Below, one piece after another: positions 1 through 53,987 of a DNA stretch of 64,000 nt. The position numbers were made by a program, and so were the translations under genes. Below the pieces are notes generated by a model that was not told the DNA's origin, did not search any database, and saw only the letters and a list, made by a program, of their open reading frames with translations. Positions within the stretch are counted from its first letter, which is position 1. Every line of letters begins with the position of its first letter. Where the stretch lies: positions 143,922 to 207,921 of the forward strand of contig CAZBOU010000001.1 in assembly GCA_964493625.1 (NCBI GenBank), read 5' to 3'. This DNA is from an uncultured Caldisericota bacterium. GTDB lineage: Bacteria > Caldisericota > Caldisericia > UBA6126.

Positions 1-3000
1 TTATTACCGAAATTCTCCTACTTTTGCAATCGGTACTGGCGTATCCAATGTAAAAGTGACACCTTCTCCTTCCACTGACGATACTGAAAATGTTCAATAT
101 GTTGTCGAGTTTAAACTGGGGCAAAGTGGTGCTCTGTACAAAAATACAGGGAAAATTTTTGTGGAGATGTTTCTTGGAAACGATCCAATCACATTTGATG
201 GAGTTACCTTGTCAAATGGTTCGGTTTTCTTTGGAACCGGACAATACACCACTATTCCAACCGAAGTAGAGAGCGTTGGCGGAGGGCTTTTTAAGCTTAC
301 AATTTCTCCTCCACAAGATCTCAATGCAGGAGCTACAGTTAAAATAACATTCAAACCTTCTGCAGGGTTGATCAATCCGGATGCAGGTACATACAACGCT
401 GTTGTATATACGAGCTCCGAGATGCTAGAGTCGGAATCCGAATCCTACGAAATTCATGATGCTATTATGGTGAATACCGTGGATGTAGATCCCACAGCTG
501 CTAATGTAGAAGCTGAATACACACTCAACGTAACCATTGATGATTCCTTAACAAAAAATATCGACACCATCTCCGTAGCGTTTCCTCAGGGTCAACGGCT
601 TCCAACAACCATTACACCAGGGGATATTTCGGTCGATGGAACCAATGTCATCCTATCTCCTTCTGTTTCATCCAATGTTCTCACCTTTCATGTTCCAAAT
701 GATATCCCTGCAGGAACTACTTTTGATATTCTGATCAAAAAATCAGCGAAAATTAAGAACCCAACAACCGCTGGCATTTATAGACTGCAAGTGAATACAT
801 CCAAACAAACATCCTATCGATTGTCTCCTCCCTTTTATATCGGAACCTCTGTAACCGGAATTGAAGTTATTCCCTCTCCTGATACAGCCAACAGTACAAA
901 TGTACAATACACGGTAAAATTTAAAATCGGCAACAATGGAGCTTTAACAGCCAATTCAGGCGACTTTATTTCCATCCAGATGCCACTAGGGGAATTGCCA
1001 ACATCGGGAGCTTCTTCAATTACTGTAAACAACGATCGATGTATTGAAAATCCTACCATTACAGATGTTGGAGGAGGATTGTACGAATTTGAAGTCTATC
1101 CCCCCAAAGACCTTCGATCCGGTGCTCAAGTTACAGTTGTATTTACCACCTCTGCAGGACTTAAAAACCCAGCAGAAGGAAATTATCGAATTACGGTCTT
1201 TACGAACAAAGAACCTATTCCTATGCAATCCGATATTTATTTAATCAAGAATGCAGTTGTGATCAATTCTGTCGATGTAAATCCTCCAGCTACAAGTGCT
1301 GAAGCTGAATATACAATTAGCATTGATATTGGTAAAAAATTAACCAAAGATATAGACACAATCGCCATCTCCCTTCCTCGAGAATCCCGAATACCATCTT
1401 CCATCAACAAAGGAAGTGTTTCGATTGAGAACGATGGAATTGTCACCGACCTAACTCTTCCCCCAACCGTGTCAGGGAGTACTATTACACTAAAAGTTCC
1501 CAAAACATATGACCCAACTCTTCCCGGGGCAGATCCTACACTCATTATTGTTGTAAAACAATCAGCAAAAGTACAAAACCCTACAAGTGCAGGCATATAT
1601 ACATTGCAAGTAATGACGTCTTCACAACCTTACTACCGAGTATCTCCCAATTATGCAATTGGTACCTCTGTAACAGGTTTTAAGATTATGCCGAATCCAA
1701 AATCCAAAAATACAGTCGACGTACAATATACATATGAATTTAAGGTAGGCGCTAGTGGAGGTCTTACGAAGAATTCAGACGAAATCCACATTATCCAACA
1801 AGTTGGAACCAGTGGACCTCTCCCTATGTTGCTACCAACATCGTCTGTAACTGTGAATGGAAAATACACTCAAGTTGCTACGGGAATTGTCGACCCCGTC
1901 GACCCCCTCTATCCTCCCGGCGCAGGATGGGTAGAAATCATCATTCAAGTCCCAGAAGATATCCGCAATAGCGGAACGGTTAAAATTGTAATCTTATCCT
2001 CTGCAGGCCTTGTTAACCCAGCAGCTGGTAATTACAAAGGTGTTATATGGACAGATCAGGAACCAATTTCTGTTGAATCTGAGTATTATCAAATTGAAGA
2101 TACGGTACTTTTCTTAGGTCCTGTTGTTGTGACACCTCCCTCGGTGGGACAAGTTGCTGAATACGAAGTAAACCTTCAATTGGACTTGGGTTTGCAAGCA
2201 AATCAAGGAACTATTACGATTGCCTTCCCAAGTGGAACTAGATTAAACCGCACAATCCCCACGACAGGAATTACAATACAAATTGGAGCAGCCCCTGAGC
2301 AAAACCTTAATATTGCCCCGCAAATATCAGGGAACAACGTCATTATAACCGCACCTGTCAACATCCCAGATGGATCCGATATTATCATACGGTTTCAAAA
2401 GAATGCAGGTGTAACCAACCCTACCACCGCAGGACTATATCGATTGCAAGCAATGACATCTTCACAACCTTATTATGCCTTATCTGATTATTATGCAATC
2501 GGTAGCTCTATTACACTTTTTGAAATTACGCCTATGCCTAACAACATTGGTGAAGAGAGAGTTGTATACGTAGTAAAAATGAAAATTGGAGCCAATGGAT
2601 TAACAGCAAATGAAGACCAAATATACCTGAGTTTGCCATTAGACGCTCCTGCTGGGCCTGGTACTTTACAACCTAGCACAATTACAGTAAACGGCGAATT
2701 TACAACCTTATCCACCAATTACCAAATTGATCCTACGTACGGCCCTCCCTATATTCAGTTTGAAATACCTGTTCCTGTGGATGTGAAAGCGAATTCAGAG
2801 CTGAATGTCGTATTCCTCGAATCTTGTGCCTTGCAAAATCCTTCTACAGAGGGCATCAAGTTTGGCTATGCGCATACTTCTCAAGAGGATATTGAGATCA
2901 AATCAAAACTGTACAATATTGTTGATTCGGTTGCATTTCCGGGCATCAATCCACCTTTGGATATGCGATCCGTAATTCCAAAATCCAACGGGATTTCTTT

Positions 3001-5620
3001 GCCAGCTCAATATATGGTTCATTTTGTAACATCTGCTACAAAACCACAATTAACGCAAAACTTAGATCGTATAAGCATTGTTTTCCCTGACGGTACCACC
3101 GTACCATCAAGTATTTCACCTGGATCCATCTATATTTCTACTGCACCAATTTGGGGAGCAGGAGATCCTGATTCTTTAACATGTCCTCCGCCCGTTGGAA
3201 CCATCTTGAATCAATCCGTTACAATTATAGGACAAGAAGTATCTTTCCCAGTTCCTATAACCATTCCTTCTGGATCCAACGTTTATATACTCTTTTGTAA
3301 AGATGCAGGATTAGAGAATCCATCCAAACCTACGATTTACAACCTTTTAGTGAAAACATCTACACAGCCCAATTACGGTATTTCCCGCAATTACATTATT
3401 CGTTCCACCGTATCTTCTGCCGAAGTTGTAGTAGATCCACCCGTTATTAATCAAAATGCAGAATATACAGTCCAGTTTACACTTGGAGAAACTGGTGCCA
3501 TTACTGCAAACAATAGTGATCTGTACGTAGGTTTCAACGGAGATGATTATACAACTCCTGCTGCAAATCTAGCTCCCTCTTCCATTAAAGTGAATGGTGT
3601 ATACTGTACAACATTTTCCACTGTCAATGCAGGACCTGCTCTGCCTGGAAATGTGGACAACGCACCTGGCTGGAATCTATACAGATGGATTCAAATCCAA
3701 TCCCCTGTAAATATTGATGCAGGTTCACAAGTAACCATTGAGTTCTTACAAAGTGCGGGATTTGTAAATCCTGCAGATTCTGGCAACTATACATGTATTG
3801 TTTGGACAAACAAAGAACCAATAGCGATCGAATCGTATCAATATACAATTGGGGATGCCGTTCAGAATCTAGAAGTACCTGCTACGCATCCCAATCCAAA
3901 AACAACAGGATCCTTTGCAGAGTATTTGATTGAATTTGACCTAGGAGTCGATCCATCGTCCCAACTCTATGCAAATACAAGTTCTATCTCTGTTACATTT
4001 CCTGAAGGTACAACGGTACCTTCCTATATCAATCCTGCGAACATCAAAGTTGGTTTTGGAGCCGTGTGCAATCCCACCTTTTCCTCTGTACCTCCCATTA
4101 CTGTGGAGGATAATACAGTTACTTTCCGCGTTCCAATTGCTATACCTGCCGGAGAACACGTTTGTATAAAATTTGAAAAAGGTGCTCAAATAGCGAACCC
4201 GCAAGACCCAGGATCGTACCAACTCAAATTAAACACCTCTTCACAACCTATCGCTGCCATTTCCAATTACTACTCGATTCTATCGACAAGTAGTATTCCA
4301 AGGGTTTCTGCAGAACCACCTGCTATCAATGCAAAGAATACTGCCTATGAAATCCGTTTTAATACAGGCATTAATGGTAATATGCTGCAGGATACAGAAG
4401 AAATTGTGATCGTATTCGACCCATCCTATGTAGGGGACTATACTGTTGGTTTTGACCCCAATCCTTCTGCTTATCCAGAGCTAACAACATCCATTCCGCA
4501 GAACTCGGTGTTTGTAAATGGAGTTGTTTTAAGCTCCATTCCTACGGTTGTCAATGATGCAGGGGAATTGAAGTATATTAAGCTGATCACTCCTGTTGAT
4601 ATAGATGCAGAATCCGAAGTAGTGGTAAAAATATCCAATATTGCTGGAATCAAAAACCCGCCAACTGTGGGACTTTATCGTTTGGCAGTTCTGACTTCGG
4701 TTGAGCCAACCCCTGTTGAGTCTCATGCATTTAGCTTGTTCTCCTCCGTTGGTGCTATTTCTGTCGAGTTGGCCAAGGACGGTTTTGTCGAACCTGCATT
4801 CCCGCCTCCTCCAGATCCTAGAGGGGCCACACCTAACACCAATGCAGAATACATTATTGAGTTCACTACCGGACCTTCCGGTAACCTTATAAAAGATTTG
4901 GGAACGATTACAGTAGCTTTCCCTTACGATACAAAGCTTCCTTCTTCTATTCTTGCCGGTTCTGTACGATGCAAGATCACCAATACCATTCTTGGAGTTA
5001 CGTATGACGGAACCCTTTCAAAAGCTCCGGTCATAAATCAAGAAACCAACGAAGTGGTTATTAGCGTTCCCGACGATGTGGAAGCCACAGACACCATTGA
5101 AATTCGTTTTACGGAGCTTGCTGGTATTCAAAACCCAACGCAATCGGGCACCTATACTCTGGAAGTTTCAACTTCATCAGAGCCATTGCTAGTTCGATCC
5201 GATCCATACTCCATCCTTGGTTTGTCTGCTGCAGAAGTAACTGTTGAGCCTTGCTTGCAGCAACTTACAGGGGCTGAAGTCAGTATTTCCTTTACAACAG
5301 TGAATGCCCTAGCCATAGGGGATGTTATTGATATCGAGTTTCCGTTTGGTACTCGCTTACCCTCTGTAATTGAGGGCGATTTTGTCATTGTAAACAATCA
5401 TCCTGCAAATGTTGGAGCTTTCCCCCAAGTCCAAGTCGACAAACAAATCGTTTCTATTAAAGTTCCAGAAATCATTCAAGCTTTATCCACAGTGCGCATT
5501 GTCTTTACAGAGAAGGCTCGCATTCAAAATCCTTCCACGGGAATGTATTCCCTGAAGATAAAAGCTGGTACACTCGAGCCAGACCACCGATGGGTGGAAT
5601 CAAAAGAGTATTTTATTTGT
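1..5620 (+). repeat. Coding tandem array of 13 ~130-aa modules in alternating A/B subtypes (~820-840 bp super-period)
   Basis: The N-P signature codons of consecutive B-type units lie at nt 758, 1577 and 2417 (spacing 819 and 840 bp). Nt 1581-1670 and 2421-2510 align gap-free with a near-identical 34-nt core. Confidence 0.8.
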
Positions 5621-8600
5621 GGGGATTTTACGCTGGCTACTGCCGAAATGATTCCCGATAGCGCAACAATGGCCAAAGGTCAAAGAAAAGAACTTGAAGT
5701 AGTATCATATGATGAAAACGGCAATACCATACCACCTGCCGGACTGTCGTATTACTGGACAACACAGGGCAATATAGGAAGTTTAACCGATATTACTAAA
5801 AACAAAGCGACCCTTGTTGCTTCTCAAACATCTGGTAGCGGAACCGTTCAGTGTGCCGTAACATTCGGAAACACAACTATACAGGTCAGTTCTTCTATCA
5901 CTGTTTCTTCTACAACGGCTCAACTGGTTGTGAATCCTACAAATAGCTCATTGTCTGTAGGAGATACACAGTCATTTACTGCAGGGGCTTACAAACAAGA
6001 CGGTAGCCCTATTAACCTTACCTATAGCTGGAGATTAGAAGGAGATTCAACAGGTTCCTTGTCTCCTATGACCGGTAAAACAACTACATTCACAGCTTCT
6101 TCCGCTGGAACATCTAAGATTATTGTTTCTGCAACCTATGAAGGAGAAAATCTCGAAGCTACAGCCAATGTCTCTGTTTCAGACAATGGTGGTCCAGGAC
6201 CAGGCCCAGGGGATGGTGCTCCTGTTCAAGCCACTATCACTCCCACAAGAGTGAATGTGAACCAGGGAGATATTTCTTTTAATTTCACCTTCACCTCTGT
6301 AGCAGAAATGTCCAACGGAATCATTGAGATCACAATTCCATCGGGCTTCCCAGAACCTACGATTGCTCCTGGATCGCAAGGCTACATCACGGCACTGGCG
6401 GGAACAGGTGTGAACATTTCGAATCCTCCCAATATCCAAGGTAGAAAAATTATCTTTAATGTCATGAGTATGGCCAATCGAAAGACCTTTACGATGACCT
6501 ATTCAAAAGTATCTGCTCCTTCAACTCCGGGCGAATATATATTCCAGATCCAAGCGAAGCAAAACCAAGACGCCGACCTTTTATCTGTTGATGAACTACC
6601 CGAAGTACTTGTTGTTTCCGTTGCTGATGGTAGTGGCAGAGCCAGTATCAACCCGAATCAAGCCTCCTCTGGGGCTACCGGACAGCGATTTGAAATTTCT
6701 TATACTGCAGATGCAGCAATGAATAGCGGAGCAATACAAATTATTGTTCCTCAAGGTTTTTCTAGACCATCTCTATCCTCTACTGCCGAGGGATATGTTC
6801 GTCTAAAAGAAGACTCTCTTGAATTTGCCAATTCACCAGAGGTACTAGGAAACATTATTACTGTTCCTATCATGACAATGGGTGTCAATGATAAACTAAC
6901 AATCATCTATGAAGACGTACGAATTCCTGCTCAGCCAAATGTATACACCTTTGTGGTAAAAAGCAAAGGAATGGGGGGTAGTTTTGTAGAAATACCCTCT
7001 AGCCCATCGGTTAACGTCAGCAATACTAGAATCTCGGATGCCAAAGTAGAGGTAGACCCAAATCAAACATCGATGTCTGCAGAGTATACCATATCGTTCA
7101 GAACCTCCGGCACTGGCTCTTTACTGAGCGGCAAAGGGACAATTGAATTCATCTACCCTGCCCAAACGATGCTTCCCGATTCTATAAAAAGCAGTAATAT
7201 TACAGTAAATGGCGAAGTCGTTACATTGCCACCAAACGTTGAAGCTGTTCGAAGCAAAGTTACTATCACGGTGCCAAAAGATATTCCTTCCAATAGTTTA
7301 GCAATTGTACAGTTTAGCAAAGAAGCCAATATTGTGAATCCAGCAACACCAAAAGACGATTACAAAATTTCAATTACTACGTCTTCTGATACAATACAAA
7401 CGTCTACGGATCCCTATACAATTGTGGTTTCAGAGCTTCGCGATATTCAAGTCGAAGTTTCTCCTATACAACCTGCAGCTATCGCAGATTACACGATTCG
7501 GATGAAAGTTGGAGGCGCAGGAGCTTTAAGCGTAAACCAAGATTCTATTACTGTCATTTTCCCATCCGACACAGAATTGCCTTCTTCCATTCCTGCCAAT
7601 GCAATCCTCATTAACAGCACTCCTCTAATGACAAGACCTCAGGTTGACCTTGCTCAGCGAAAAATCATCATGGCCCTTCCTGTTCGAATTGAAAACGATA
7701 CAGAGGTAATCATCGAAATAAAAACCGCCGCAAAAATTAAGAATCCTACCAGAGACGGCATGTACAAATTGAAAGTGTTTACATCCAAAGAAACAACACA
7801 AACAGAATCGGAAGCCTATCAAATTGGAACCTCACTATTGGGTGATATTAGCGTTTCTCTCTCTTCGTCATTGGTTGATGAACAAAATGTTACCTATACT
7901 GTTCAGTTTAGAACAGGTGGATATGGACGCATTGAAGTGGGTGAAACCATTACCATATCATTTGATAGTCGCTACAACCTAGGCACCATTCAAGCCCATC
8001 ATGTTACAGTGAACGGTGTTGTATGTTCCATTACCCCAGAAGTGTCTGAAGGGGTTTCTGTTATCATTAAATCCCCCATTGCAATTGATGGTGAAAGCAA
8101 TGTAACAGTCACTATTAGCAATATGCGCAACCCTTCAACATCCGGAGAATACACTGTATCTGTATCAACGCAAGCGGAACCTATGCCCGTTGTTTCCACT
8201 CCTTATACGGTGGGTATGATTCTTACTACTGAAATTACAGTGAACCCATCCTCACCAAATGGACTTTCTGGATGGTATAAAATTGCTCCCAACATTCTAT
8301 TCAATAATGATGTAGCAAGTGCAAAGATTTTCTATTCCTGGGACGAAGAACCCTTCCAGCGGTATACTGGTACAGCCATCACAGCTCCAGAAGGTATCCA
8401 TATATTGAACTGGTACTCTGTTGCAGAAGGTTTTTCCGATGAAACCAAGCAAGATATGCAGTTTAAAGTAGACACAAAAGCTCCTGAAGTTTTCGTAAGT
8501 GAACCCAAAGATGGGGCAGTGTTGAATGAACCACAAGTGAAGGTATCTGGTGAAGTATACGAGAACAATGCATTTACTGTTACGATAAATGATAGACCAG

Positions 8601-9433
8601 CAACTCTTACTGAAAAACGTTTTACTTCCATTGTTTCCTTAAATCCAGGAGACAATTTGATTGATATCATTGCTATTGATGAAGCTGGAAATCGAAGTGT
8701 TACTCCTAGAATACGTGTAAAATATGTACAACCGTCGGATATTAAGTTTAATATTCAATCACCTCAAAGCTTGTCCTCTGTTTATCCCGTTTTAGAAACA
8801 ACCGACGAGGGCTCGCGGCTTGTTGCAACGATACCCATTGAAGGAAAAATTAATCCAGCCACAGCGGATACGGTAAACATTATCATCATGGATGTAATGG
8901 AACAACCTGTATCCCTGCCTATTGATGAAGCTGGAATCTTCAAGGGTGAAGTTAAGATGCCAGTCATTGCTGGGTTAAACGGTATTGTGTTTTCCGTCAA
9001 GGATCGCATAACAGGAAAAGAATATTCCTCTTCTTCCACCGTTATTGCAAAGGTCATGATTGAACTTCAAATTGGCAATTCATTGGCTTTTGTGAACGAA
9101 CAAGAAAACAAGCTAGATGCTCCTCCCTACATTAAAGATGGAAGAACCATGCTACCTATGCGATTTATTGGAGAAGCCATTGGAGCTACAGTAGGATGGA
9201 TACCTGAAGGCAAAACGGTTGTATATGACTTTGATACGATTCATATCGAGCTTCAAATTGGAAGCAAAGAAGCTCTTGTAAAGCGAGGAGAAACATCCGA
9301 AACTATAGAAATGGATGTTGCTCCTGAAATTAAGAGTGGTCGAACTTTTGTTCCATTGCGTTTTGTAACAGAGACCTTAGGAGCTGAAGTTGAGTGGATT
9401 CCAGAAACGAAAACCATTAAGGTTTCCAAATGA
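1..9433 (+). CDS. Giant secreted repeat-module surface protein, 5' end off-window (>3,140 aa)
   Basis: The frame is open from nt 2. Nt 2-55 translate to YYRNSPTFAIGTGVSNVKV, the tail of a preceding module, so the true start is upstream of the window. Hand count: 16 modules with signature [AG]-[GK]-[ILV]-x-N-P-x(2-5)-G-x-Y-x-[ILV]-x-[ILV]-x-T-S. Also two Big_2-like Ig domains (~5630-6180), a GGPGPGPGDG linker (6188-6223), two 'type-C' units, and a C-terminal GWY domain / Ig / 2x copper-amine-oxidase-N-like cassette. Confidence 0.85.
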   Translation, partial: YYRNSPTFAIGTGVSNVKVTPSPSTDDTENVQYVVEFKLGQSGALYKNTGKIFVEMFLGNDPITFDGVTLSNGSVFFGTGQYTTIPTEVESVGGGLFKLTISPPQDLNAGATVKITFKPSAGLINPDAGTYNAVVYTSSEMLESESESYEIHDAIMVNTVDVDPTAANVEAEYTLNVTIDDSLTKNIDTISVAFPQGQRLPTTITPGDISVDGTNVILSPSVSSNVLTFHVPNDIPAGTTFDILIKKSAKIKNPTTAGIYRLQVNTSKQTSYRLSPPFYIGTSVTGIEVIPSPDTANSTNVQYTVKFKIGNNGALTANSGDFISIQMPLGELPTSGASSITVNNDRCIENPTITDVGGGLYEFEVYPPKDLRSGAQVTVVFTTSAGLKNPAEGNYRITVFTNKEPIPMQSDIYLIKNAVVINSVDVNPPATSAEAEYTISIDIGKKLTKDIDTIAISLPRESRIPSSINKGSVSIENDGIVTDLTLPPTVSGSTITLKVPKTYDPTLPGADPTLIIVVKQSAKVQNPTSAGIYTLQVMTSSQPYYRVSPNYAIGTSVTGFKIMPNPKSKNTVDVQYTYEFKVGASGGLTKNSDEIHIIQQVGTSGPLPMLLPTSSVTVNGKYTQVATGIVDPVDPLYPPGAGWVEIIIQVPEDIRNSGTVKIVILSSAGLVNPAAGNYKGVIWTDQEPISVESEYYQIEDTVLFLGPVVVTPPSVGQVAEYEVNLQLDLGLQANQGTITIAFPSGTRLNRTIPTTGITIQIGAAPEQNLNIAPQISGNNVIITAPVNIPDGSDIIIRFQKNAGVTNPTTAGLYRLQAMTSSQPYYALSDYYAIGSSITLFEITPMPNNIGEERVVYVVKMKIGANGLTANEDQIYLSLPLDAPAGPGTLQPSTITVNGEFTTLSTNYQIDPTYGPPYIQFEIPVPVDVKANSELNVVFLESCALQNPSTEGIKFGYAHTSQEDIEIKSKLYNIVDSVAFPGINPPLDMRSVIPKSNGISLPAQYMVHFVTSATKPQLTQNLDRISIVFPDGTTVPSSISPGSIYISTAPIWGAGDPDSLTCPPPVGTILNQSVTIIGQEVSFPVPITIPSGSNVYILFCKDAGLENPSKPTIYNLLVKTSTQPNYGISRNYIIRSTVSSAEVVVDPPVINQNAEYTVQFTLGETGAITANNSDLYVGFNGDDYTTPAANLAPSSIKVNGVYCTTFSTVNAGPALPGNVDNAPGWNLYRWIQIQSPVNIDAGSQVTIEFLQSAGFVNPADSGNYTCIVWTNKEPIAIESYQYTIGDAVQNLEVPATHPNPKTTGSFAEYLIEFDLGVDPSSQLYANTSSISVTFPEGTTVPSYINPANIKVGFGAVCNPTFSSVPPITVEDNTVTFRVPIAIPAGEHVCIKFEKGAQIANPQDPGSYQLKLNTSSQPIAAISNYYSILSTSSIPRVSAEPPAINAKNTAYEIRFNTGINGNMLQDTEEIVIVFDPSYVGDYTVGFDPNPSAYPELTTSIPQNSVFVNGVVLSSIPTVVNDAGELKYIKLITPVDIDAESEVVVKISNIAGIKNPPTVGLYRLAVLTSVEPTPVESHAFSLFSSVGAISVELAKDGFVEPAFPPPPDPRGATPNTNAEYIIEFTTGPSGNLIKDLGTITVAFPYDTKLPSSILAGSVRCKITNTILGVTYDGTLSKAPVINQETNEVVISVPDDVEATDTIEIRFTELAGIQNPTQSGTYTLEVSTSSEPLLVRSDPYSILGLSAAEVTVEPCLQQLTGAEVSISFTTVNALAIGDVIDIEFPFGTRLPSVIEGDFVIVNNHPANVGAFPQVQVDKQIVSIKVPEIIQALSTVRIVFTEKARIQNPSTGMYSLKIKAGTLEPDHRWVESKEYFICGDFTLATAEMIPDSATMAKGQRKELEVVSYDENGNTIPPAGLSYYWTTQGNIGSLTDITKNKATLVASQTSGSGTVQCAVTFGNTTIQVSSSITVSSTTAQLVVNPTNSSLSVGDTQSFTAGAYKQDGSPINLTYSWRLEGDSTGSLSPMTGKTTTFTASSAGTSKIIVSATYEGENLEATANVSVSDNGGPGPGPGDGAPVQATITPTRVNVNQGDISFNFTFTSVAEMSNGIIEITIPSGFPEPTIAPGSQGYITALAGTGVNISNPPNIQGRKIIFNVMSMANRKTFTMTYSKVSAPSTPGEYIFQIQAKQNQDADLLSVDELPEVLVVSVADGSGRASINPNQASSGATGQRFEISYTADAAMNSGAIQIIVPQGFSRPSLSSTAEGYVRLKEDSLEFANSPEVLGNIITVPIMTMGVNDKLTIIYEDVRIPAQPNVYTFVVKSKGMGGSFVEIPSSPSVNVSNTRISDAKVEVDPNQTSMSAEYTISFRTSGTGSLLSGKGTIEFIYPAQTMLPDSIKSSNITVNGEVVTLPPNVEAVRSKVTITVPKDIPSNSLAIVQFSKEANIVNPATPKDDYKISITTSSDTIQTSTDPYTIVVSELRDIQVEVSPIQPAAIADYTIRMKVGGAGALSVNQDSITVIFPSDTELPSSIPANAILINSTPLMTRPQVDLAQRKIIMALPVRIENDTEVIIEIKTAAKIKNPTRDGMYKLKVFTSKETTQTESEAYQIGTSLLGDISVSLSSSLVDEQNVTYTVQFRTGGYGRIEVGETITISFDSRYNLGTIQAHHVTVNGVVCSITPEVSEGVSVIIKSPIAIDGESNVTVTISNMRNPSTSGEYTVSVSTQAEPMPVVSTPYTVGMILTTEITVNPSSPNGLSGWYKIAPNILFNNDVASAKIFYSWDEEPFQRYTGTAITAPEGIHILNWYSVAEGFSDETKQDMQFKVDTKAPEVFVSEPKDGAVLNEPQVKVSGEVYENNAFTVTINDRPATLTEKRFTSIVSLNPGDNLIDIIAIDEAGNRSVTPRIRVKYVQPSDIKFNIQSPQSLSSVYPVLETTDEGSRLVATIPIEGKINPATADTVNIIIMDVMEQPVSLPIDEAGIFKGEVKMPVIAGLNGIVFSVKDRITGKEYSSSSTVIAKVMIELQIGNSLAFVNEQENKLDAPPYIKDGRTMLPMRFIGEAIGATVGWIPEGKTVVYDFDTIHIELQIGSKEALVKRGETSETIEMDVAPEIKSGRTFVPLRFVTETLGAEVEWIPETKTIKVSK

Positions 9434-45200: not shown

Positions 45201-45709
45201 TGATTGATTCAATCCGTAGTCCTCGAAAAAAGACCAAAAACACCGTACGAATGTGTACCCTTTCTGATCTATCCGGGTCTATGGAGCTCCTTGCCTTCGG
45301 GCAAGCTGCAAATGATATTGATGCGGTCATGCAGGAAGAAAATTCAGATGCCATTATGGCTTTTTTGTGCACCGCAAAAGTAGCCTTTCGAAACGATGGA
45401 TTTCAATACCTTATTAAAAAAGTCGATCGCTGCTATACTCTGTCGGATGTACACCGCCAACTTAAAAAACCTTCCCGGTTGTATTTAAATATCAATTTGG
45501 ATATCATTTCAAAAACCAAATTATCGGAGATCACTCATCTCCTATCGAAACATACAGGACCGTCCGATGTCATCCTCCATATTCATTTCAGAGGCTATCG
45601 CATTGAAACTCACCCTTCGATGGACTACCATGTAACCCGTAGCATGGAGTTAACTACAGAATTACAGCACTTATTATCACCAGAAAATGTGTGGTGGAGG
45701 CAATGTTAA
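42245..45709 (+). CDS. dnaE: DNA polymerase III alpha subunit
   Basis: PHP domain FVHLHNHSEYSLLDG, GPGRGSAAGS, MPDIDIDF, FNRAHAACY. 1,154 aa with a GTG start. Confidence 0.96.
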   Translation: MSFVHLHNHSEYSLLDGLSKTKEMAEHALALGQKAIALTDHGTMFGAIEFYKTCLDVGIKPIVGCEVYVAPESLHKKDEKRHGTNLFHLLLLAKNNQGYQNLCNIVSRSYTEGFYYKPRIDFDLLSSLGNDLIVSTGCIQGQLPRLLLAGQTTEAEDLARQYKERFGSDFYIEIMNHGLAEEMRVNPLLVSLANKVEIPLIATHDSHYVHKEDAYAHDILLCIQQLKDFDDPKRMRFTGDSFYLKSEEEMKQLFPELPQALENTSQVAEKCNLEFDFETKHLPKYRSPEHGVASKEERIQYLRHLCEENLPLRYGNTIDKDIRDRLEYELGVIESMDFVDYFLVVQDFIRYARENNIAVGPGRGSAAGSIVSYLLRITDIDPLRYNLYFERFLNPQRFSMPDIDIDFEDARREEIIDYVKRTYGEDCVSQIGTFGKLESRAAFRDVARAFKISPTEINLQSKKIPAGQSLASAYKHSESFKKLVDENETYTKIYETASRLEHAVRNFSTHACGILITDEPLWNYVPLAIDKNKKRVSMYEKNTVEKLGLLKMDFLGLKNLTIIKDCCELVQKQQNKAIDLDALPLDDATTYELYKKGQTKGVFQVESPGMQKWLKELKPDSIEDIIAMVALYRPGPMQNIPDFIENKQNQSTIQYLDACLEPVLKNTYGICIYQEQVMSIAQVMSGFSMADADKLRKAMGKKIPELMEKQHEKFVKGAIEKGFTQDLAETVFAMLEKFAEYGFNRAHAACYGLLSYQTAYLKANYPAEYMCSLMNTFRSDEKRIESYIDECRAMNIPILPPDINKSHILFSLETMPSSKEGEEKQETPSEIGIRFGLSAIKNVGEAALESVLEDRTTNGLYIGVKDFKTRNKTNKVTKRTIEFLIKAGAFDFYQNNRTDLLDTLNNVRAEGLSLFDSSPESSSEAPKAAPTSSIETNLLFEKEALGFYITTNPMVQFLEAFPSLEFTTLEALQGIHAETEVQVFCMIDSIRSPRKKTKNTVRMCTLSDLSGSMELLAFGQAANDIDAVMQEENSDAIMAFLCTAKVAFRNDGFQYLIKKVDRCYTLSDVHRQLKKPSRLYLNINLDIISKTKLSEITHLLSKHTGPSDVILHIHFRGYRIETHPSMDYHVTRSMELTTELQHLLSPENVWWRQC

Positions 45710-47478
45710 AGTTTTTTGGATCGGTACGATTTCAAGTCGTTATCTTCACCATTTTGGTGGTTGTATCCGGAAATGTAGTGTTAAACTATTTTCTGACTCA
45801 AAATGCAAAAGAAATGCTGATTGTAGAAAAACAAGAAAAAATTGAAAATGTTGGCCATTACCTTGTGAAAGAATACAACCGATATTTTGTAGGAGAACAA
45901 AGCCAAGTCTATCAGTTGGCCAAAGAACAGCATGCAAGATATACAGGGACAGAGCCAAAAACAGTCGAAGATATTTACCACAACTTATTGAAACAAAAAA
46001 TTCGCCCTACCCTGCATGGCATCATCGAAACTTCTTCTTCTCTTTTCAGTGAAGAAGGGGGCGCAGGATTTTATATCCGAAGCCAAAATCGCGTGTATGG
46101 ATTTCTCGAAAAAACCGAATTGTACTCCTATGATAAAATTATTGCCACCGTTCCTATCAGTAACGATGGATCGTTTGTTTGGGTGGAAGAATCGACACGG
46201 AATCTTGATCAAAAAGTAGCTTTGTTGCAGCACAGAACGAATTCAATTACCATTGTTGTGATTGGAATCATCTTGCTGTTTGCCTTTCTTTTTAGTTTTT
46301 CCTTTGCGGGACGCATTAAAAGAATTCTTCGGGGTTTAAAAATACTCGAACAAGATTTGCATGTCCCTTTGCCATCTATGAATGGAGAATTAGGAATTCT
46401 CTCCGAGGGCATCAACCAATTGGCGCAAAGCCTGATTTTATCTAGAACGCGATCTGATTTAATCCTAAACAATGCATCCACGGCCATGATATCTCTAGAT
46501 CAGAACCACAATATCCTTTTCTACAACAAAGCAGCTCTTGAGCTTTTGCAGATCCAAGAAAAGCAGTTACACATCCAAACAATCTACTCGCTTCTGGGAC
46601 CCGTTTTAGAAAATGCTGTCACTAGAGCATTTGAGAATAAGCATACCTTTTCTTTTGATAATTTTCCTGTCCGCCTTCCTTCCATGCAAAAGTATTTTCA
46701 TATTGTAGTAGCGTGTCATTTTGACCCTGAAAATAAGAGAACTGTTTTGATTACACTGGACGATGTCACTGAAAATGTGAAGCTCATACGAGAGGCTGAA
46801 AAGAACGAATCTCTACGCATGCTTGGAATGTTTACCACAGGCATAGCCCATGAAATACGAAATCCCTTAACATCTGTGAAAGGATTTGTGCAGCTACTCG
46901 GTAAAAAAGTATCCAATGAGCCTGGCAATCAAAGAATGATTCAATTGATCGGTAGAGAAATTGACCGATTGGAAGACTTGCTCAAAGATTTAATCACCTA
47001 TGCCCGTCCCTCGAAAACGAACAACGAATGGATTCCTTTGCCAGATCTTGTAGGAATTATTGAAAATTTACTTAAAGAGAGAGTTCAACAACGGAAAGTC
47101 GAGTTTCAAATTGAAGGAATGGAATCCATCGAATTGTTTGCCGACCAAAGAAAAGTACATCAAGTTTTGTTTAATCTTGTACTCAATGCGATTCAAGCAG
47201 TTCGCATTGGAGAGGGTGTTATCAAGTTGTACGGCGTTGCTGAGCCGGATGCATTTTGGATTTGTGTACAAGACAATGGATATGGAATTCGAGAAGAAGA
47301 TGTAGGAAAAATTTTCACACCCTTCTTTACAACCAAAGATAAGGGTACCGGATTGGGGCTGGCTATTTCCCGTAGAATGATGGAAGATATGGAGGGTGTC
47401 ATTGACTTTACAAGTGATCCAGACCAGCATGTTACCGTCTTCCGCATTGGATTTACGAACTGGAGAAAAGCGCACTAG
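45691..47478 (+). CDS. Sensor histidine kinase (TM-periplasmic-TM, HAMP-like, PAS, HisKA, HATPase)
   Basis: H-box HEIRNPLTSVKGF, N-box LNAIQA, G1 VQDNGYGI, G2 GTGLGLAISR, and two predicted TM segments. The start is uncertain (GTG 45691 or ATG 45703). Overlaps the dnaE end. Confidence 0.88.
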   Translation: MVEAMLKFFGSVRFQVVIFTILVVVSGNVVLNYFLTQNAKEMLIVEKQEKIENVGHYLVKEYNRYFVGEQSQVYQLAKEQHARYTGTEPKTVEDIYHNLLKQKIRPTLHGIIETSSSLFSEEGGAGFYIRSQNRVYGFLEKTELYSYDKIIATVPISNDGSFVWVEESTRNLDQKVALLQHRTNSITIVVIGIILLFAFLFSFSFAGRIKRILRGLKILEQDLHVPLPSMNGELGILSEGINQLAQSLILSRTRSDLILNNASTAMISLDQNHNILFYNKAALELLQIQEKQLHIQTIYSLLGPVLENAVTRAFENKHTFSFDNFPVRLPSMQKYFHIVVACHFDPENKRTVLITLDDVTENVKLIREAEKNESLRMLGMFTTGIAHEIRNPLTSVKGFVQLLGKKVSNEPGNQRMIQLIGREIDRLEDLLKDLITYARPSKTNNEWIPLPDLVGIIENLLKERVQQRKVEFQIEGMESIELFADQRKVHQVLFNLVLNAIQAVRIGEGVIKLYGVAEPDAFWICVQDNGYGIREEDVGKIFTPFFTTKDKGTGLGLAISRRMMEDMEGVIDFTSDPDQHVTVFRIGFTNWRKAH

Positions 47479-47559: not shown

Positions 47560-48858
47560 ATGATAAAATACAAAGTTTTAATTGCCGACGATGAAGAAGG
47601 TGTACGAGATCTCTGTACTGCCATTGCAGAAGATGAGGGTTACGAAGTCATCACTGCAGTTGACGGGATTGATGCCTTGCAGAAAATCCGAGAAGAAATT
47701 CCCGATGTTATCCTATTGGACGTTCGAATGCCCGATATGGATGGCATGGAAGTTTTTCAAAAGGTAAAGGAAGACTATATCGATGCACCAGTTGTATTCG
47801 TAACAGCGTTTGGCTCTTCCGATCTGGCCATTGAAGCCATGAAACAGGGCGCGTATGATTATATTACGAAACCATTTGATATAGATGAAATCCGCATTGT
47901 CTTAAAAAAAGCTCTCTATGTAAAACAATTAACAAAAGAGATTACCAACCTACGATCGAATCATAATACAGCCTACCCAAGCACAGTTGACTTAGTCGGT
48001 TCCTCGCATGTTATGCAGGATGTTTTTAAAAGCATCGGCATGGTAGCTAAAAACACAGCCTCTGTTTTGATCGAAGGAGAAGCAGGTACAGAAACCGATC
48101 AAGTAGCACATACCCTGCATGAAAAATCTGCGATGTCCGAAGAACCCTTTTGCGAGATATCTTGTTACGAAGACGTCGATGCCTTCCAAGAGGAATGTTC
48201 CAACTTTCCTACAGGTTCTACCGCAACGGTATATATAAAAAATATCCAACTTCTTTCAAATAAAGGGCAGGAAATTCTATTTCAAAAGATTTCGAAGGAC
48301 ACCTCCTCCCGCTTTGTATCTTCTAGCACTGTTGATATTTCCGACAAAGTAACGCAAGGGCACTTTCATGAACAATTGTTTTTTAAACTGTCTACGGTAC
48401 GCATTCATCTACCCCCTTTGCGGGAACGAATAGAAGATATCGAAGAAGTTGGACTTCATTTAATAGAACCTTTGAATGCACAATACAAAAAAAATGTGAA
48501 GGGTTTTTCTTCCGATGCAATCGACATTTTCAAAGCATATTCGTGGCCTGGTAATGTGGAAGAATTTAAAAATGTATTGACGCATAGCATTATTTCCACA
48601 AAAAGTAATTTCATTACTAAAGAGAATTTACCCGCATTTCTTTTTCATAAGTCCACTGAACAAAAAGTAAATCCAGATGATATATATCTCGGTTTAACCC
48701 TCTCAGAGGCAACAAAAAAATTTGAAGCGGAGTATATAAAGCGAATTTTGCAGATGCAGGGAGGGAATAAAACCAAAACAGCTGAAATTTTGGGCATATC
48801 TCGCCGCTCCTTGTTCAACAAACTTAGATCCTATGAGCTTCTATCACCCTCAAAATAA
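47560..48858 (+). CDS. NtrC-family response regulator with degenerate AAA+ core and Fis-type HTH
   Basis: Intact receiver (ADDEEG..ILLDVRMPDMDG..KP) and HTH (GGNKTKTAEILGISRRSLFNKL). The central domain keeps LPPLRERIEDI and WPGNVEEF, but Walker A reads GEAGTETD, the GAFTGA segment is absent, and Walker B reads VYIKNI. Confidence 0.88.
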   Translation: MIKYKVLIADDEEGVRDLCTAIAEDEGYEVITAVDGIDALQKIREEIPDVILLDVRMPDMDGMEVFQKVKEDYIDAPVVFVTAFGSSDLAIEAMKQGAYDYITKPFDIDEIRIVLKKALYVKQLTKEITNLRSNHNTAYPSTVDLVGSSHVMQDVFKSIGMVAKNTASVLIEGEAGTETDQVAHTLHEKSAMSEEPFCEISCYEDVDAFQEECSNFPTGSTATVYIKNIQLLSNKGQEILFQKISKDTSSRFVSSSTVDISDKVTQGHFHEQLFFKLSTVRIHLPPLRERIEDIEEVGLHLIEPLNAQYKKNVKGFSSDAIDIFKAYSWPGNVEEFKNVLTHSIISTKSNFITKENLPAFLFHKSTEQKVNPDDIYLGLTLSEATKKFEAEYIKRILQMQGGNKTKTAEILGISRRSLFNKLRSYELLSPSK

Positions 48859-49080: not shown

Positions 49081-52000
49081 ATGAAAAAGACAATTCGATT
49101 TGTAGCTAGTTTAATTGCAGTAACCTTAGTGGTTTCTGTATTTGCCAGTGTTGAAATGACCCGGGCAGATGCTCAGAACATACAGGTTACACCGTACCCT
49201 AAAACGGCAGGAACACAAGCATCCTACCAAGTAAAGTTTAATGTAAATTCGGCACTTCAAGCGGGAAAAGATTCAATTTCAATCATTTTCCCCAAAGAAA
49301 CGAATTTGGATTCGACGATTTCTTCTGGAAACATTTGTGTTAATCCAAAAGAGTTAATAGGTGCTGATTTTGAACTTGATTACCGCACGGGTACTGTTCG
49401 TTTAATGAATCCTCTTCGCAAAGGGGATCGTGTTGTTGTGGACTATCGTTATCAACCTGGTCCAGACTACACACAGCTACCGCGAAACGTTAAATTTTAT
49501 GATTTAACCTATGGTGCTGGCAATGTCCGTTCCGGCAACGGCCGACTGGATGCTGGTGAATGGATCTATGAAGACCGTGATAACGACAGTAAGATTTCTG
49601 TGGGTGACCGCAGATTATGCATTGTCGCTGTTGGTGGTGTTACCTACCGCCAAGGATCCTTGGTTCAAGTCGGTGACAACGACTTTGGAGCCGGAGCTGA
49701 TCCAACAAGACCTTTAACGTCTTTCTCTTCCACCAACCTAACGTTTGTTGACAACAACAACGATGGTATCTTCAACGAAAACGATTGGCTAGTGGATGAT
49801 CGCAATCAAAACAACTATTTAGACCGCAACGATGTTTTGATTGCTGGTATTTTCGATTACCAGGCAGGGTCCATTGTAGAAGGGACCAATTTGGATATAG
49901 CCAATGTTGTCACTCGTTTGGGCAATGATCCTATTGTTGGTAACGATTATGTGTTTGCAGATACCGTATCTGCCAATGGAACCTATGATTTTGGTGAATA
50001 CATTTATGAGAAAACCACCCTGCTTGCTCTTAACAAAGAAGTTCAGGTTGGCGATACTCGCTGGAGCTGGGTTGTTGCTGGAACCAATTTGTATCCACCC
50101 CAAACCATTGTTGTAGCAGGCGACACCGATATTGGCACGCCTGTCAATATCTTCCCATGGTCTGCCACATCCTATTCCGAAGGGTATACAAACAACGTTA
50201 CCCCTCCACTACCCGCCCCACCACTATTCAATGGATGGCGCATTTATCGATTGGCAAACAATACGACACCAGCTGTTTCAGCTGGGAATTATCGAAAAAC
50301 CGATGTGCGATATGGGCAGTATGCACCTACTCTTCTTGTTACCCCCATCGACGCTGACATCGGAAAACCATTGTTTCCTTTTGCCACCAATGAAAAGTTC
50401 CACGACACCGATGGAGATACCAATTATTGGGAGACCGATCCTGTTTACCGCGATCTAGACAACAACAGTACGGTAAGTGAGGGCGATGTTCGTCTCACCG
50501 ATTTTACTGTATGGGATGGTTCGCATCGCATCCACTACACAGCTGGTTCCATTGTACGCAATTGTGAAAAAGATGTGGGCCTTGCATTGTCTACGTTCCA
50601 ATCCGCTGCAAATCGATATCGCCATATGGAAAATGGAATTCCTAATAACATTTTTGAACCTGGCGAAATGATTGTTCGAGATGCAGATGCAACCAATTCT
50701 ATTACAGCTGGCGATACTCGTTTTGATTATTATGGCGTTATGTCTGCCAATGTTTCGATCATGAATGACCAATATTCTGACTATGGAAAAACCCTTACCA
50801 AGGGTTGGACCGACATTAATGGCGAAGTATTGGTGAATTATGCTGACGGCGGGGAGCAAATCCTGAAATTGTCTCATTACCCCGTTATTGCACCTGTCAT
50901 TCCCATAGACAACGATGTCAATTATCGAGTAATGCCCATACAATTAGCAAGCAATCCTACCAATTTCAAGAACACTGGAAAATGGTACTATATTGTAACA
51001 GCCCTCAGTGATACCTTGAATGAAGAATCTCCTCCATGGCCAGAACGCATGGTCGATTTTACTTCTGGGAATATGAATGCTGTCCATTTAAACTGGTCTC
51101 CTGTACCCAATGCCAGCAAGTATAAGGTATATCGAACAAAAGATGCTGGAACGTATAGTGAAGATTCTTTAGTCGCCGTTGTCAAAGCTCCCTATACATC
51201 GTATATCGATGTTGGATGCGATGCATTAACCGGAGCTCCACGGCCAGAGTATCGATCTTCCTTTACAAAAATTATGATCGAAAGACCTACCAATGGCGGT
51301 TCTTATACCACCCGCCAAATGAATGAATACGAGTTGTCGGATTACAAGATTGATTGCAAAACCGGACTCATTACATTCCGTAAATCCTTAAAACAACTCG
51401 ATACTGTTGTGGCCGACTATGATGTTGCTCAGAGCATTACCAATGAAAAAATTATCATTGATACCATCTCTGGTCGCGGTCAACTTCGCCATGGCGAAAT
51501 CATTGACCCCGATTTATTCGGCGAAGAAGAATACAAACTTGAACTTCGCAAGGTAAGTGCATCCAATCCAAACTACCCCACAGTTCTTGTTCGCGGTGTA
51601 GATTATCAATTTATGGATTCTAACAATGATATTGTCGAAGGCTTGAAGAATGGTTCCATTGTCTTCTATACCCAAATAAGCGATGGAGATTCTGTATATG
51701 CCGACTATTATTACAGAGACAAAGTGCGCGGTGATTTAGTGGCCGTTGCAAATGGCAACGAAACACAACTAAGAACTCACCAAAGCAATATTGTTCCCGG
51801 AACATACACAGTGTACAAAGGAAAAACCTTATCCTCTGCTCCTGTCATCAATGTTATGAACAGCGAAAGAGGACCCTTGGTTACCTTTACCACACCCGTT
51901 AATGTCATTCCTGATCCCGCCTACAGAGTGAACCCAACCCCCGAATCCAAGCGAGATATTACGATAGTCTTTTCACTCCAAACCGGCATTCGCAACCCAA

Positions 52001-53901
52001 GCAAAGCTGGAAACTATCAGCTATATGTCAAAACATCTCAAGAACAAACTGAAATTCTTTCAACACCTTATGTTATTGAAGCCGGCAGCGAAGCCCAGCA
52101 GCTGATCAAGCTAACACAAGACCAATCCATATCTGCTGGACAAACCATTGCCTTAACATGTGCCGTACAAGACAATTTAGGAAATATGATACCGAATACT
52201 TCCATTAAATATACTATTGTCAGTTCTCCGAATAGCGAAGGTATCTTAAACAAAGAGAATTTTGTTACCGATTCTTCGGGTAACGCCGTAGCCATGTATA
52301 CAACTTCCAAAACTCCTGGCCTGAATACAATAAGGGCCCATATCGTTGGAACTACACAAAGCGTTACTTTCAAGATTAATGGACTCTCTTCTCAACCCAT
52401 CACGCGCATTGGCATATCTCCTAAAGATGCGCGCGTGCTACCAAACGGCACACAATTGTTTACAGCCATTGGATATAACTCCGCTGGTGAAAATGTACCC
52501 AATATTAAGTTCAACTGGTCTGTAAGCCCACCTAGTATAGGAACTATTACCAGCGATGGAAACTTCACTGCAGGTTCTTCCAATGCAACCGGAACAATTA
52601 TAGCAGAGGCTTATGGCGTGCGCGCCACCGCCAATGTAACCATTGCGTCGGGTCAAACAAAGGTTTCCAACATTGTATTGAATCCATCCCAAGCGGAAGT
52701 ATCGGTTGGAAAGACTGTTCAGTTTACCGCCAAAGCTTACGATAAAGACGGAAACGAAGTATCTGTACCCTTTACGTGGTCTATTAGCAATGATGAATTT
52801 GCTTCTATTTCGCAAAGTGGTCTCTTGACTGCAAAAAATCCTGGTACTGTTTTTGTTATTGCAACAGAACCAGGCGGCATGAATCAATATGCTACTGTTA
52901 CCATCACCAAGGGCGAATCCGGAATTAGTTACATAGAGATTCAACCTAGCACCTACCAAATGAATGTTGGCCAATCCGTACAGTTTACAGTTAGTGCCTA
53001 CGACCAAGCTGGCGATCGTTTCACCCCCACCAATGTTACATGGGAAGTTACCAGTGGCACTATTGGCGTCATTACAAATACAGGTGTTTTCACCGCTACC
53101 ACAGTGGGAATTGGTAGAGTAACAGCAAAAGTAGGTACGTTATCATCGAGTGCCGAAGTTACTGTCCACTCCAGCCAAGAAGAAGACAAAGTAGGACCCG
53201 TCATTACGCTTATTAGTCCAAAAGATGGCGATACCATCTCTGACAATACTGTTGTTGTACGCGGAACCGCCGTGGATCCTTCCGGCGTAAAACAAGTACT
53301 GGTCAACAATGTTCCTGCTAATTTGAATGCTGACGGTATCTTTACCTCTCAGCCTGTTGCTATTACCAGCGGAAGCAATGTGATTTCTATCATCGCTACA
53401 GACAACCGAAACAATGTCTCTATGCTTAGCATTACAGTCAAAAAGACGGTACCTGTTATCATTAAGCTTCAAATTGGAAACAAAAATGCCGTCATCATGA
53501 AGAACAATATGCCCCAGTTTGTTACCATTGATCTTGCTCCTTTCACAACCGAAGGCAGAACGATGGTACCGCTGCGCTTTATTACAGAATCCTTTGGTGC
53601 TCTTGTGGACTGGAAACCAGATGTACCTGCTACCGGTGAAGGACAGATTACCATTACACTGGACAAACACAATGGCAGCAGAGTGCAATTGATTATGCAT
53701 ACTGGATCTACCTTCATGAAGAAAATTACCACCAAAGACGGCAGCTCCACAGAAGAAGCTATCAATTACTCTCCTGCTCCCTATATCGTAAAACCGCAAG
53801 GCCGAACAGTTGTTCCTCTTCGATTTATCTCTGAACAATTTGGAGCCACTGTCGATTGGGATGCTACCACACAGGAAATCACCATTACCTATTATCCCTA
53901 A
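49081..53901 (+). CDS. Giant secreted surface protein paralog (1,606 aa) with split module, Ca2+-loop repeats, FN3-like, 4x Big_2, Ig and 2x CuAO-N-like domains
   Basis: RBS AAGGGGGGTAGG. Signal peptide MKKTIRFVASLIAVTLVVSVFASVEMTRA. Module signature TGIRNPSKAGNYQLYVKTSQE. Big_2-like units (~52380-53170). C-terminal GRTMVPLRFITESFGALVDW and GRTVVPLRFISEQFGATVDW. Confidence 0.92.
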   Translation: MKKTIRFVASLIAVTLVVSVFASVEMTRADAQNIQVTPYPKTAGTQASYQVKFNVNSALQAGKDSISIIFPKETNLDSTISSGNICVNPKELIGADFELDYRTGTVRLMNPLRKGDRVVVDYRYQPGPDYTQLPRNVKFYDLTYGAGNVRSGNGRLDAGEWIYEDRDNDSKISVGDRRLCIVAVGGVTYRQGSLVQVGDNDFGAGADPTRPLTSFSSTNLTFVDNNNDGIFNENDWLVDDRNQNNYLDRNDVLIAGIFDYQAGSIVEGTNLDIANVVTRLGNDPIVGNDYVFADTVSANGTYDFGEYIYEKTTLLALNKEVQVGDTRWSWVVAGTNLYPPQTIVVAGDTDIGTPVNIFPWSATSYSEGYTNNVTPPLPAPPLFNGWRIYRLANNTTPAVSAGNYRKTDVRYGQYAPTLLVTPIDADIGKPLFPFATNEKFHDTDGDTNYWETDPVYRDLDNNSTVSEGDVRLTDFTVWDGSHRIHYTAGSIVRNCEKDVGLALSTFQSAANRYRHMENGIPNNIFEPGEMIVRDADATNSITAGDTRFDYYGVMSANVSIMNDQYSDYGKTLTKGWTDINGEVLVNYADGGEQILKLSHYPVIAPVIPIDNDVNYRVMPIQLASNPTNFKNTGKWYYIVTALSDTLNEESPPWPERMVDFTSGNMNAVHLNWSPVPNASKYKVYRTKDAGTYSEDSLVAVVKAPYTSYIDVGCDALTGAPRPEYRSSFTKIMIERPTNGGSYTTRQMNEYELSDYKIDCKTGLITFRKSLKQLDTVVADYDVAQSITNEKIIIDTISGRGQLRHGEIIDPDLFGEEEYKLELRKVSASNPNYPTVLVRGVDYQFMDSNNDIVEGLKNGSIVFYTQISDGDSVYADYYYRDKVRGDLVAVANGNETQLRTHQSNIVPGTYTVYKGKTLSSAPVINVMNSERGPLVTFTTPVNVIPDPAYRVNPTPESKRDITIVFSLQTGIRNPSKAGNYQLYVKTSQEQTEILSTPYVIEAGSEAQQLIKLTQDQSISAGQTIALTCAVQDNLGNMIPNTSIKYTIVSSPNSEGILNKENFVTDSSGNAVAMYTTSKTPGLNTIRAHIVGTTQSVTFKINGLSSQPITRIGISPKDARVLPNGTQLFTAIGYNSAGENVPNIKFNWSVSPPSIGTITSDGNFTAGSSNATGTIIAEAYGVRATANVTIASGQTKVSNIVLNPSQAEVSVGKTVQFTAKAYDKDGNEVSVPFTWSISNDEFASISQSGLLTAKNPGTVFVIATEPGGMNQYATVTITKGESGISYIEIQPSTYQMNVGQSVQFTVSAYDQAGDRFTPTNVTWEVTSGTIGVITNTGVFTATTVGIGRVTAKVGTLSSSAEVTVHSSQEEDKVGPVITLISPKDGDTISDNTVVVRGTAVDPSGVKQVLVNNVPANLNADGIFTSQPVAITSGSNVISIIATDNRNNVSMLSITVKKTVPVIIKLQIGNKNAVIMKNNMPQFVTIDLAPFTTEGRTMVPLRFITESFGALVDWKPDVPATGEGQITITLDKHNGSRVQLIMHTGSTFMKKITTKDGSSTEEAINYSPAPYIVKPQGRTVVPLRFISEQFGATVDWDATTQEITITYYP

Positions 53902-53957
53902 GTTTATTCGTATAGCATATACCGCTTAAACAGCTAAATTCCAACAACACTCGCAAA

Positions 53958-53987
53958 GCCGGGGCCCTCAAAAGCCCCGGTTTTTTT
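53958..53987 (+). terminator. Rho-independent terminator after the third giant gene
   Basis: GCCGGGGC-cctcaaaa-GCCCCGG hairpin followed by TTTTTTT. Confidence 0.85.

Follow-up and report, generated by a model that had tools for sequence, protein, structure and literature searches.

A single Ig-like module appears to be split by a large multidomain guest in a stalk-domain protein of a Caldisericia bacterium

We analyzed a 64,000-nucleotide stretch of DNA (the window) from a Caldisericia bacterium, whose genome of 2.35 Mb is a draft of 111 contigs, and looked into the third of its open reading frames (ORFs) that belong to a family of immunoglobulin (Ig)-like module proteins. The module, of ~125 amino acids (aa), occurs as 30 tandem copies in ORF1 and ORF2. 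ORF3 (window 49081-53901, + strand) encodes 1606 aa, and an earlier note on this DNA had proposed that it holds a single module split by a nested insertion of ~810 aa. Profiles and predicted secondary structure both describe the ORF3 module as a discontinuous Ig-like sandwich with a guest at one loop. The two segments of the host module, each delimited by hidden Markov model (HMM) search, hhalign, and DSSP, are the following.

49177-49347, + strand: N-terminal half of the Ig-like module (aa 33-89), with the first four strands, to I-C-V-N-P
51814-52083, + strand: C-terminal half of the Ig-like module (aa 912-1001), with the family motif GIRNPSKAGNYQLYVKTSQEQ

We derived a module HMM from the 30 regular copies in ORF1 and ORF2 and ran it against ORF3 with every filter disabled. 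The search returned exactly two complementary matches: HMM positions 1-55 matched aa 40-92 (36.5 bits, E value = 2.7e-13), and positions 42-119 matched aa 903-997 (38.8 bits, E value = 5.4e-14). All further stretches of ORF3 gave E values of at least 0.011 against the module HMM. The two halves together covered the full-length profile of the ORF1/ORF2 module family, and the family motifs A-G-I-x-N-P ... G-x-Y-x-L-x-V-x-T-S-x-E and the N-terminal P-x(5)-A-x-Y-x-I-x-F are represented in ORF3 by TGIRNPSKAGNYQLYVKTSQEQ and PKTAGTQASYQVKF. The segments lie where the earlier note had placed them, with QNIQVTPYPK...SGNICVN at aa 32-88 (nucleotides 49174-49344) and YKGKTLSSAPVINV...STPYVIE at aa 912-1000 (nucleotides 51814-52080), and its ORF1 example of the regular order, ITVNGEVVTLPPNVEAVRSKVTITVPKDIP...FSKEANIVNP, sits in the module at window 7040-7432.

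For profile-profile comparison, we used ortholog sub-alignments (N-terminal half, C-terminal half, and the two joined) as hhalign queries against a profile of 23 regular modules.

N-terminal half (aa 33-89): module columns 1-58, score 72.8, E value 9.7e-15
C-terminal half (aa 912-1001): module columns 56-129, score 84.6, E value 5.8e-16
Both halves joined: module columns 1-129 in a single alignment, score 147.7, E value 1.5e-26, probability 99.7%

The score of the joined halves was roughly additive (147.7, compared with 72.8 + 84.6). Extending the N-terminal half by the adjacent 40 aa of the guest raised its score only to 74.5 (+1.7), and extending the C-terminal half by the preceding 77 aa raised it only to 87.6 (+3.0). 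Because the neighboring guest units add only 2 to 3 score units, neither segment would be a complete domain; two complete domains are ruled out by the complementarity of the hhalign columns and the tiny gain from the flanks. Judged by these profiles, the segments are complementary halves joined at V-N-G. Profile alignment, which had been named beforehand as a possible refutation of complementary halves, thus supports them. The junction maps to module columns 56-58 (V-N-G), and therefore the insert spans about aa 90-911, or ~822 aa, close to the size first proposed.

Next, we compared predicted structures. The AlphaFold2 (AF2) model of a regular module, made with the alignment of 23 regular modules (predicted local distance difference test [pLDDT] = 97.4, predicted template modeling score [pTM] = 0.90) indicates a single rigid, compact Ig-like sandwich. 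With Foldseek, 125-171 columns of this model aligned to solved chains, and the best matches were Ig-like domains of Gram-positive pilins and adhesins: SpaD (TMq 0.58), BcpA, EbpB, Sgo0707, and Sdr proteins (probabilities up to 1.0, E values of 2e-3 or weaker). A PDB sequence/profile search with the module gave no significant match. We then modeled ORF3 aa 30-1005 (976 aa) with 22 homologs and obtained a mean pLDDT of 80.2; per 10-residue block, pLDDT was 75-86 in the N-terminal half and mostly 80-88 in the C-terminal half. At 109 of the 125 aligned positions, the two halves in this model and the regular module had the same DSSP assignment, covering strands, short helical turns, and isolated bridges.

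The split is conserved. All 21 full-length homologs (46-90% identity) cover ORF3 aa 30-1000 completely and show the same two partial module matches. P0026, P0068, P0070, and the locus L011, from another family of the class, share the split layout; the relatives in that family are 1827-1943 aa long and keep the layout with a ~1050-aa guest. Genome searches recovered uninterrupted orthologous frames in the genus, family, and order, with no internal stops in the full-length frames, and no ORF3 ortholog in families f3-f5 of the class. Across orthologs, the two halves had the highest identity of the protein (67% each), and guest repeats R2-R4 were its least conserved part (23-43%). One candidate for an ortholog free of the insert, P0027 (752 aa), starts inside the third DY unit of the guest (described below) and was rejected as an N-truncated gene call.

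The module family extends well beyond ORF3. We counted 52 modules in 11 ORFs of the genome, and ORF3 holds the sole split copy. Three loops of the paralogous modules are prone to short indels, and the one after V-N-G is among them, which fits the earlier suggestion that this loop is surface exposed. A second enlarged loop of the host module lies in the C-terminal half at window 51901-51936 (aa ~941-952), where, relative to regular modules, 12 extra residues (PDPAYRVNPTPE) follow the P-V-N-V strand; orthologs keep this loop as PDPANKIN-TPDS. ORF1 occupies window 2-9433 and runs past the window start, and in the genome its stop-to-stop frame is 3624 aa long with 19 modules. Close to it on the upstream side are two more ORFs with modules, of 567 and 1162 aa (genome C1:134120-139302), and because these ORFs adjoin ORF1, module proteins are clustered in this part of the contig. 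ORF1 as a whole is the sole case seen to pass the Pfam threshold for DUF2808 (66.5 bits; cut-off, 25.3), and one degenerate ORF1 module has a sub-threshold match to BslA (25.4; cut-off, 38.7); these matches lie at window 7040-8221 and 6200-7000 (ORF1 aa ~2074-2321). They link the Caldisericia module family to a BslA/DUF2808 Ig-like group. Neither Pfam family matched ORF3 or its isolated halves.

The guest (aa ~90-911) comprises three homologous ~40-aa DY units, six ~72-aa repeats, and an FN3-like domain, in the following order.

49348-49464, + strand: DY unit 1 (aa 90-128), directly after the N-terminal half of the host (hhalign)
49465-50820, + strand: six tandem repeats of ~66-90 aa (aa ~129-580), from hhalign self-comparison of the ortholog profile
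50821-51000, + strand: beta-rich linker segment (aa 581-640), with strands assigned by DSSP on the AF2 model and no Pfam family match
51001-51246, + strand: FN3-like domain (aa ~641-722) with the LNWSPVPNASKYKVYRT motif and a weak GH85_C match
51247-51450, + strand: DY unit 2 region (aa 723-790), the unit itself at 51322-51444 (aa ~748-788; hhalign against DY units 1 and 3)
51586-51726, + strand: DY unit 3 (aa 836-882; hhalign against DY units 1 and 2)
51727-51813, + strand: guest return segment (aa 883-911), whose last part is a long strand, IVPGTYTVYKGK, running back to the host (DSSP on the AF2 model)

Comparisons among the DY units gave hhalign probabilities of 94-97% (DY unit 1 against units 2 and 3, E value = 4e-11 and 5.5e-10), with the consensus ADYxLDYxTGxIxF..PL..GDxVVADYxY. 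The units have a weak, sub-threshold similarity to Pfam DUF2460 (E value = 0.0019 for the DY unit 2 region, under the curated cut-off). A PDB sequence/profile search with a DY unit gave no significant match, and a SPRY-like match to 'LDYETG' was set aside as chance (E value = 0.16).

The six-repeat region was recognized by profile: hhalign self-comparison gave shifted alignments with E values from 6e-29 to 3e-6, and blastp self-comparison of the guest returned nothing. Canonical EF-hand-like 12-residue loops lie at aa 165, 224, 240, 442, and 458. All five fit D-x-[DN]-x-[DNSG]-x6-[DE], and in four of them the ligand positions (1, 3, 5, and 12) are kept in orthologs. The region is a putative Ca2+-stabilized head. 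We found no Pfam EF-hand or dockerin match in ORF3, no Pfam family at an E value of ≤1 for aa 154-560, nothing above threshold with Pfam and NCBIfam on pieces of the guest, and no significant match in a PDB sequence/profile search with the guest. A beta-propeller of the FG-GAP/integrin type gave no Pfam match, and whole-model Foldseek returned low-probability propeller-containing matches only. The global PDB Foldseek matches of the whole model (CD109, C5, A2M, and fructofuranosidases) were likewise of low probability and were not used. Foldseek of the 976-aa model, taken as a whole, against the viral library BFVD gave local matches to phage tail proteins (~140-180 columns, 14-22% identity, probability 1.0).

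An exhaustive search found the repeat family in about a hundred other protein clusters, with no Pfam or NCBIfam match. Proteins noted to carry the ~72-aa EF-hand-loop repeat include P0072, P0105, P0125, and P0139, and one member is a high-GC protein of 760 aa that consists almost entirely of repeats. On reading, the C-termini of two short repeat proteins (…PEF, a transmembrane segment, and a basic tail) resemble archaeal PEF-CTERM signals. Many remote homologs align to the FN3-like stretch, and those that we checked carry GH85_C/fn3 Pfam domains. By DSSP, the return strand occupies model residues 875-886, and it has a weak alignment to the I-x-V-N-G strand of the module itself.

Outside the split module, the gene has the following features.

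49081-49173, + strand: Sec-type signal peptide (aa 1-31, MKKTIRF...TRADA|Q), assigned by reading the sequence
52114-53190, + strand: predicted Ig-like stalk of one Big_1-like and three Big_2 domains (aa ~1012-1370; Pfam)
53197-53898, + strand: C-terminal cassette of a Glucodextran_B-like Ig domain and two Cu_amine_oxidN1 'stalk' domains (aa 1373-1606; Pfam)
53955-53984, + strand: strong intrinsic terminator-like hairpin 3' of the ORF3 stop codon (11-bp stem with 7 GC pairs, then a T run)

The signal peptide, which follows a ribosome-binding site (AAAGGGGGG), has by eye a basic n-region, a hydrophobic core, and an A-x-A-like cleavage site. Pfam matches in the whole of ORF3 are confined to the C-terminal 600 aa: Big_2 (E value = 2.1e-19, three stretches), Big_1 (E value = 2.7e-5, under the cut-off), Glucodextran_B (E value = 1.2e-8), and Cu_amine_oxidN1 (PF07833; E value = 3.8e-22, two stretches). 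ORF3 therefore has the C-terminus of stalk-domain (Cu_amine_oxidN1) surface proteins; ORF1 and ORF2 share the cassette, and a 90%-identical partial protein from a Caldisericia bacterium is named 'stalk domain-containing protein' at NCBI. A stalk-type region occurs in 54 ORFs of the genome, at the extreme C-terminus in 43 of them, and because of these numbers and positions it suggests a general envelope- or surface-attachment cassette of the organism. In ORF3, the cassette is presumed to be the envelope anchor.

These results can be brought together in a model in which the ORF3 product is secreted through the Sec pathway and presumably displayed at the surface. Strands one to four (aa 33-89) would fold in cis with the rest of the strands (aa 912-1001) into one beta-sandwich, and the ~822-aa guest would leave and re-enter it by way of the hairpin that follows the conserved I-x-V-N. 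A neck is probably formed by the DY units, of which one lies where the guest exits and two lie close to its return. The split module would be a base that grips a large distal head by two chain connections. The Ca-loop repeats would be this head, raised on an Ig-like stalk, with the Big_1-like, Big_2, Glucodextran_B-like Ig, and stalk domains serving as stalk and envelope anchor. Binding or adhesion would be the likeliest role of ORF3, and the most variable repeats, R2-R4, would be the likeliest exposed or ligand-contacting surface. We consider a split host domain with cis folding and a looped-out guest the best explanation, with good though not full confidence.

Several points weigh against this model. 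The earlier note had proposed structure prediction as a check, and the predicted secondary structure of the halves agreed with a split module; the overall confidence of the 976-aa AF2 model was low (pTM = 0.52, with two of five models poor at pLDDT 58-60). Contact and co-folding of the halves in cis are deduced from profiles and predicted secondary structure, Ca2+ binding by the repeats from the loop pattern, and anchoring by the stalk domains is an assumption. The comparison with insert-less orthologs that had also been proposed found nothing to compare, as a search with ORF3 aa 895-1606, in which ~800-aa proteins were the candidates, recovered no insert-less ortholog.

The halves might instead be remnants of a module that no longer make up one sandwich, each packing separately with the guest (the N-terminal half with DY unit 1, and DY unit 3 with the C-terminal half). 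In several orthologs, the N-terminal HMM alignment extends into DY unit 1 and the C-terminal one begins further upstream, and the return strand IVPGTYTVYKG mimics the I-x-V-N-G strand of the module. However, these extensions add only the 1.7 and 3.0 score units given above, the C-terminal half would be left without the first three strands and the N-terminal half without the strands of the family's most conserved motif, the predicted secondary structure of the two halves equals that of an intact module, and no other part of the protein is as well conserved. We regard separate packing as quite unlikely.

Pairing of the halves in trans, by domain swapping between neighboring molecules, would give a surface fiber or lattice. 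The ~822-aa spacer would permit pairing in cis or in trans, the organism's many giant module proteins, together with its 54 proteins bearing stalk domains, suggest an elaborate envelope, and a monomer prediction cannot separate the two arrangements. Yet trans pairing has no positive evidence in its favor, the split Ig-like domains in the literature are presented as intramolecular, and a closed neck would suit the homology and conservation of the DY units at exit and return; we hold it to be very unlikely. Two broader readings seem to us unlikely: one, that trans-paired halves are a polymerization device for a Ca2+-dependent surface lattice or sheath in Caldisericia; the other, that the six-repeat head is an undescribed fold family common to Caldisericia surface proteins and to proteins resembling archaeal PEF-CTERM surface proteins. 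An artifact (an assembly chimera, a frameshift-fused gene pair, or a mobile element in the gene) might be suspected in a draft of 111 contigs, but it has a negligible probability given that the same open frame of 1570-1940 aa, uninterrupted by stops, recurs in over 20 independent assemblies, one of them a 2.17-Mb genome in a single contig, and given the conserved upstream regulator gene.

The preferred model, a host domain split in cis, has close parallels. Split Ig-like domains are known in RTX adhesins, among them MpIBP of Marinomonas primoryensis, FrhA of Vibrio cholerae, and Aeromonas homologs; in these sequence-discontinuous sandwiches, the guest exits and returns at one site, the termini lie on one side, and a ligand-binding guest is projected from the stalk (PMC10865825). 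Thus, the nested architecture claimed for ORF3 is upheld by the profiles, but it is not as unusual as first described. Sequence-based homology tools miss the split domains of RTX adhesins, and the guests named for them are single domains (PA14, peptide binding, or sugar binding) (PMC10865825). ORF3 shares with these adhesins the discontinuous Ig-like sandwich and the guest at one site. It differs in having a Sec signal peptide and a stalk cassette, and Pfam finds no RTX repeats; the marks of RTX family membership (RTX beta-roll, type I secretion signal, and N-terminal retention module) are not those of ORF3. The host module family also differs, the guest is larger (~822 aa, ~1050 in relatives, with at least ten sub-units), the split domain is at the N-terminal tip rather than mid-chain, and the organism belongs to the Caldisericia.

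Among Gram-positive bacteria, pilus tip adhesins such as RrgA of Streptococcus pneumoniae have Ig-like domains of the CnaA/CnaB type into which a binding domain is inserted. By Foldseek, the regular module is similar to the Ig-like domains of pilins (E value of ~2e-3 only), whereas no sortase signal was seen at the ORF3 C-terminus and no vWA domain was among its Pfam matches. Nearer relatives depart from ORF3 in order: the regular modules of ORF1 and ORF2 belong to the same family but are continuous, with other domains following linearly, and P0072 (2940 aa) has the same Ca-loop repeats and ends in the stalk-type cassette of ORF1-3, but its N-terminal module is intact and the repeats come further along in linear order.

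The split-domain design itself is therefore already known; the new elements are its lineage and host module family, its N-terminal position, and how large the guest is and what it is made of. Split-domain display would extend beyond type I-secreted RTX adhesins to Sec-secreted, stalk-domain-anchored proteins with a very large multidomain guest. For this surface protein, which is conserved and unannotated and comes from a phylum that has received little study, the analysis offers corrected domain boundaries; a construct with its cut at aa 89 or aa 912 would be expected not to fold. It also points to the hairpin after I-x-V-N as a permissive, exposed loop of the module family and flags an unannotated Ca-loop repeat family as a probable functional head.

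Immediately upstream of ORF3 lies one further gene.

47560-48858, + strand: NtrC-type response regulator gene (Pfam)

An NtrC-type regulator lies directly upstream of the ORF3 ortholog in loci L002, L003, L006-L008, and L010-L012 (35-87% identity, tblastn), that is, in all loci with an upstream flank; these span the genus, the family, and the order and reach a second family of the class. The ORF3 gene is thus paired with a response regulator gene across the class. Upstream of the regulator, a sensor kinase is encoded at 45691-47478, and the RseP-like gene downstream of ORF3 was seen in same-genus loci only.

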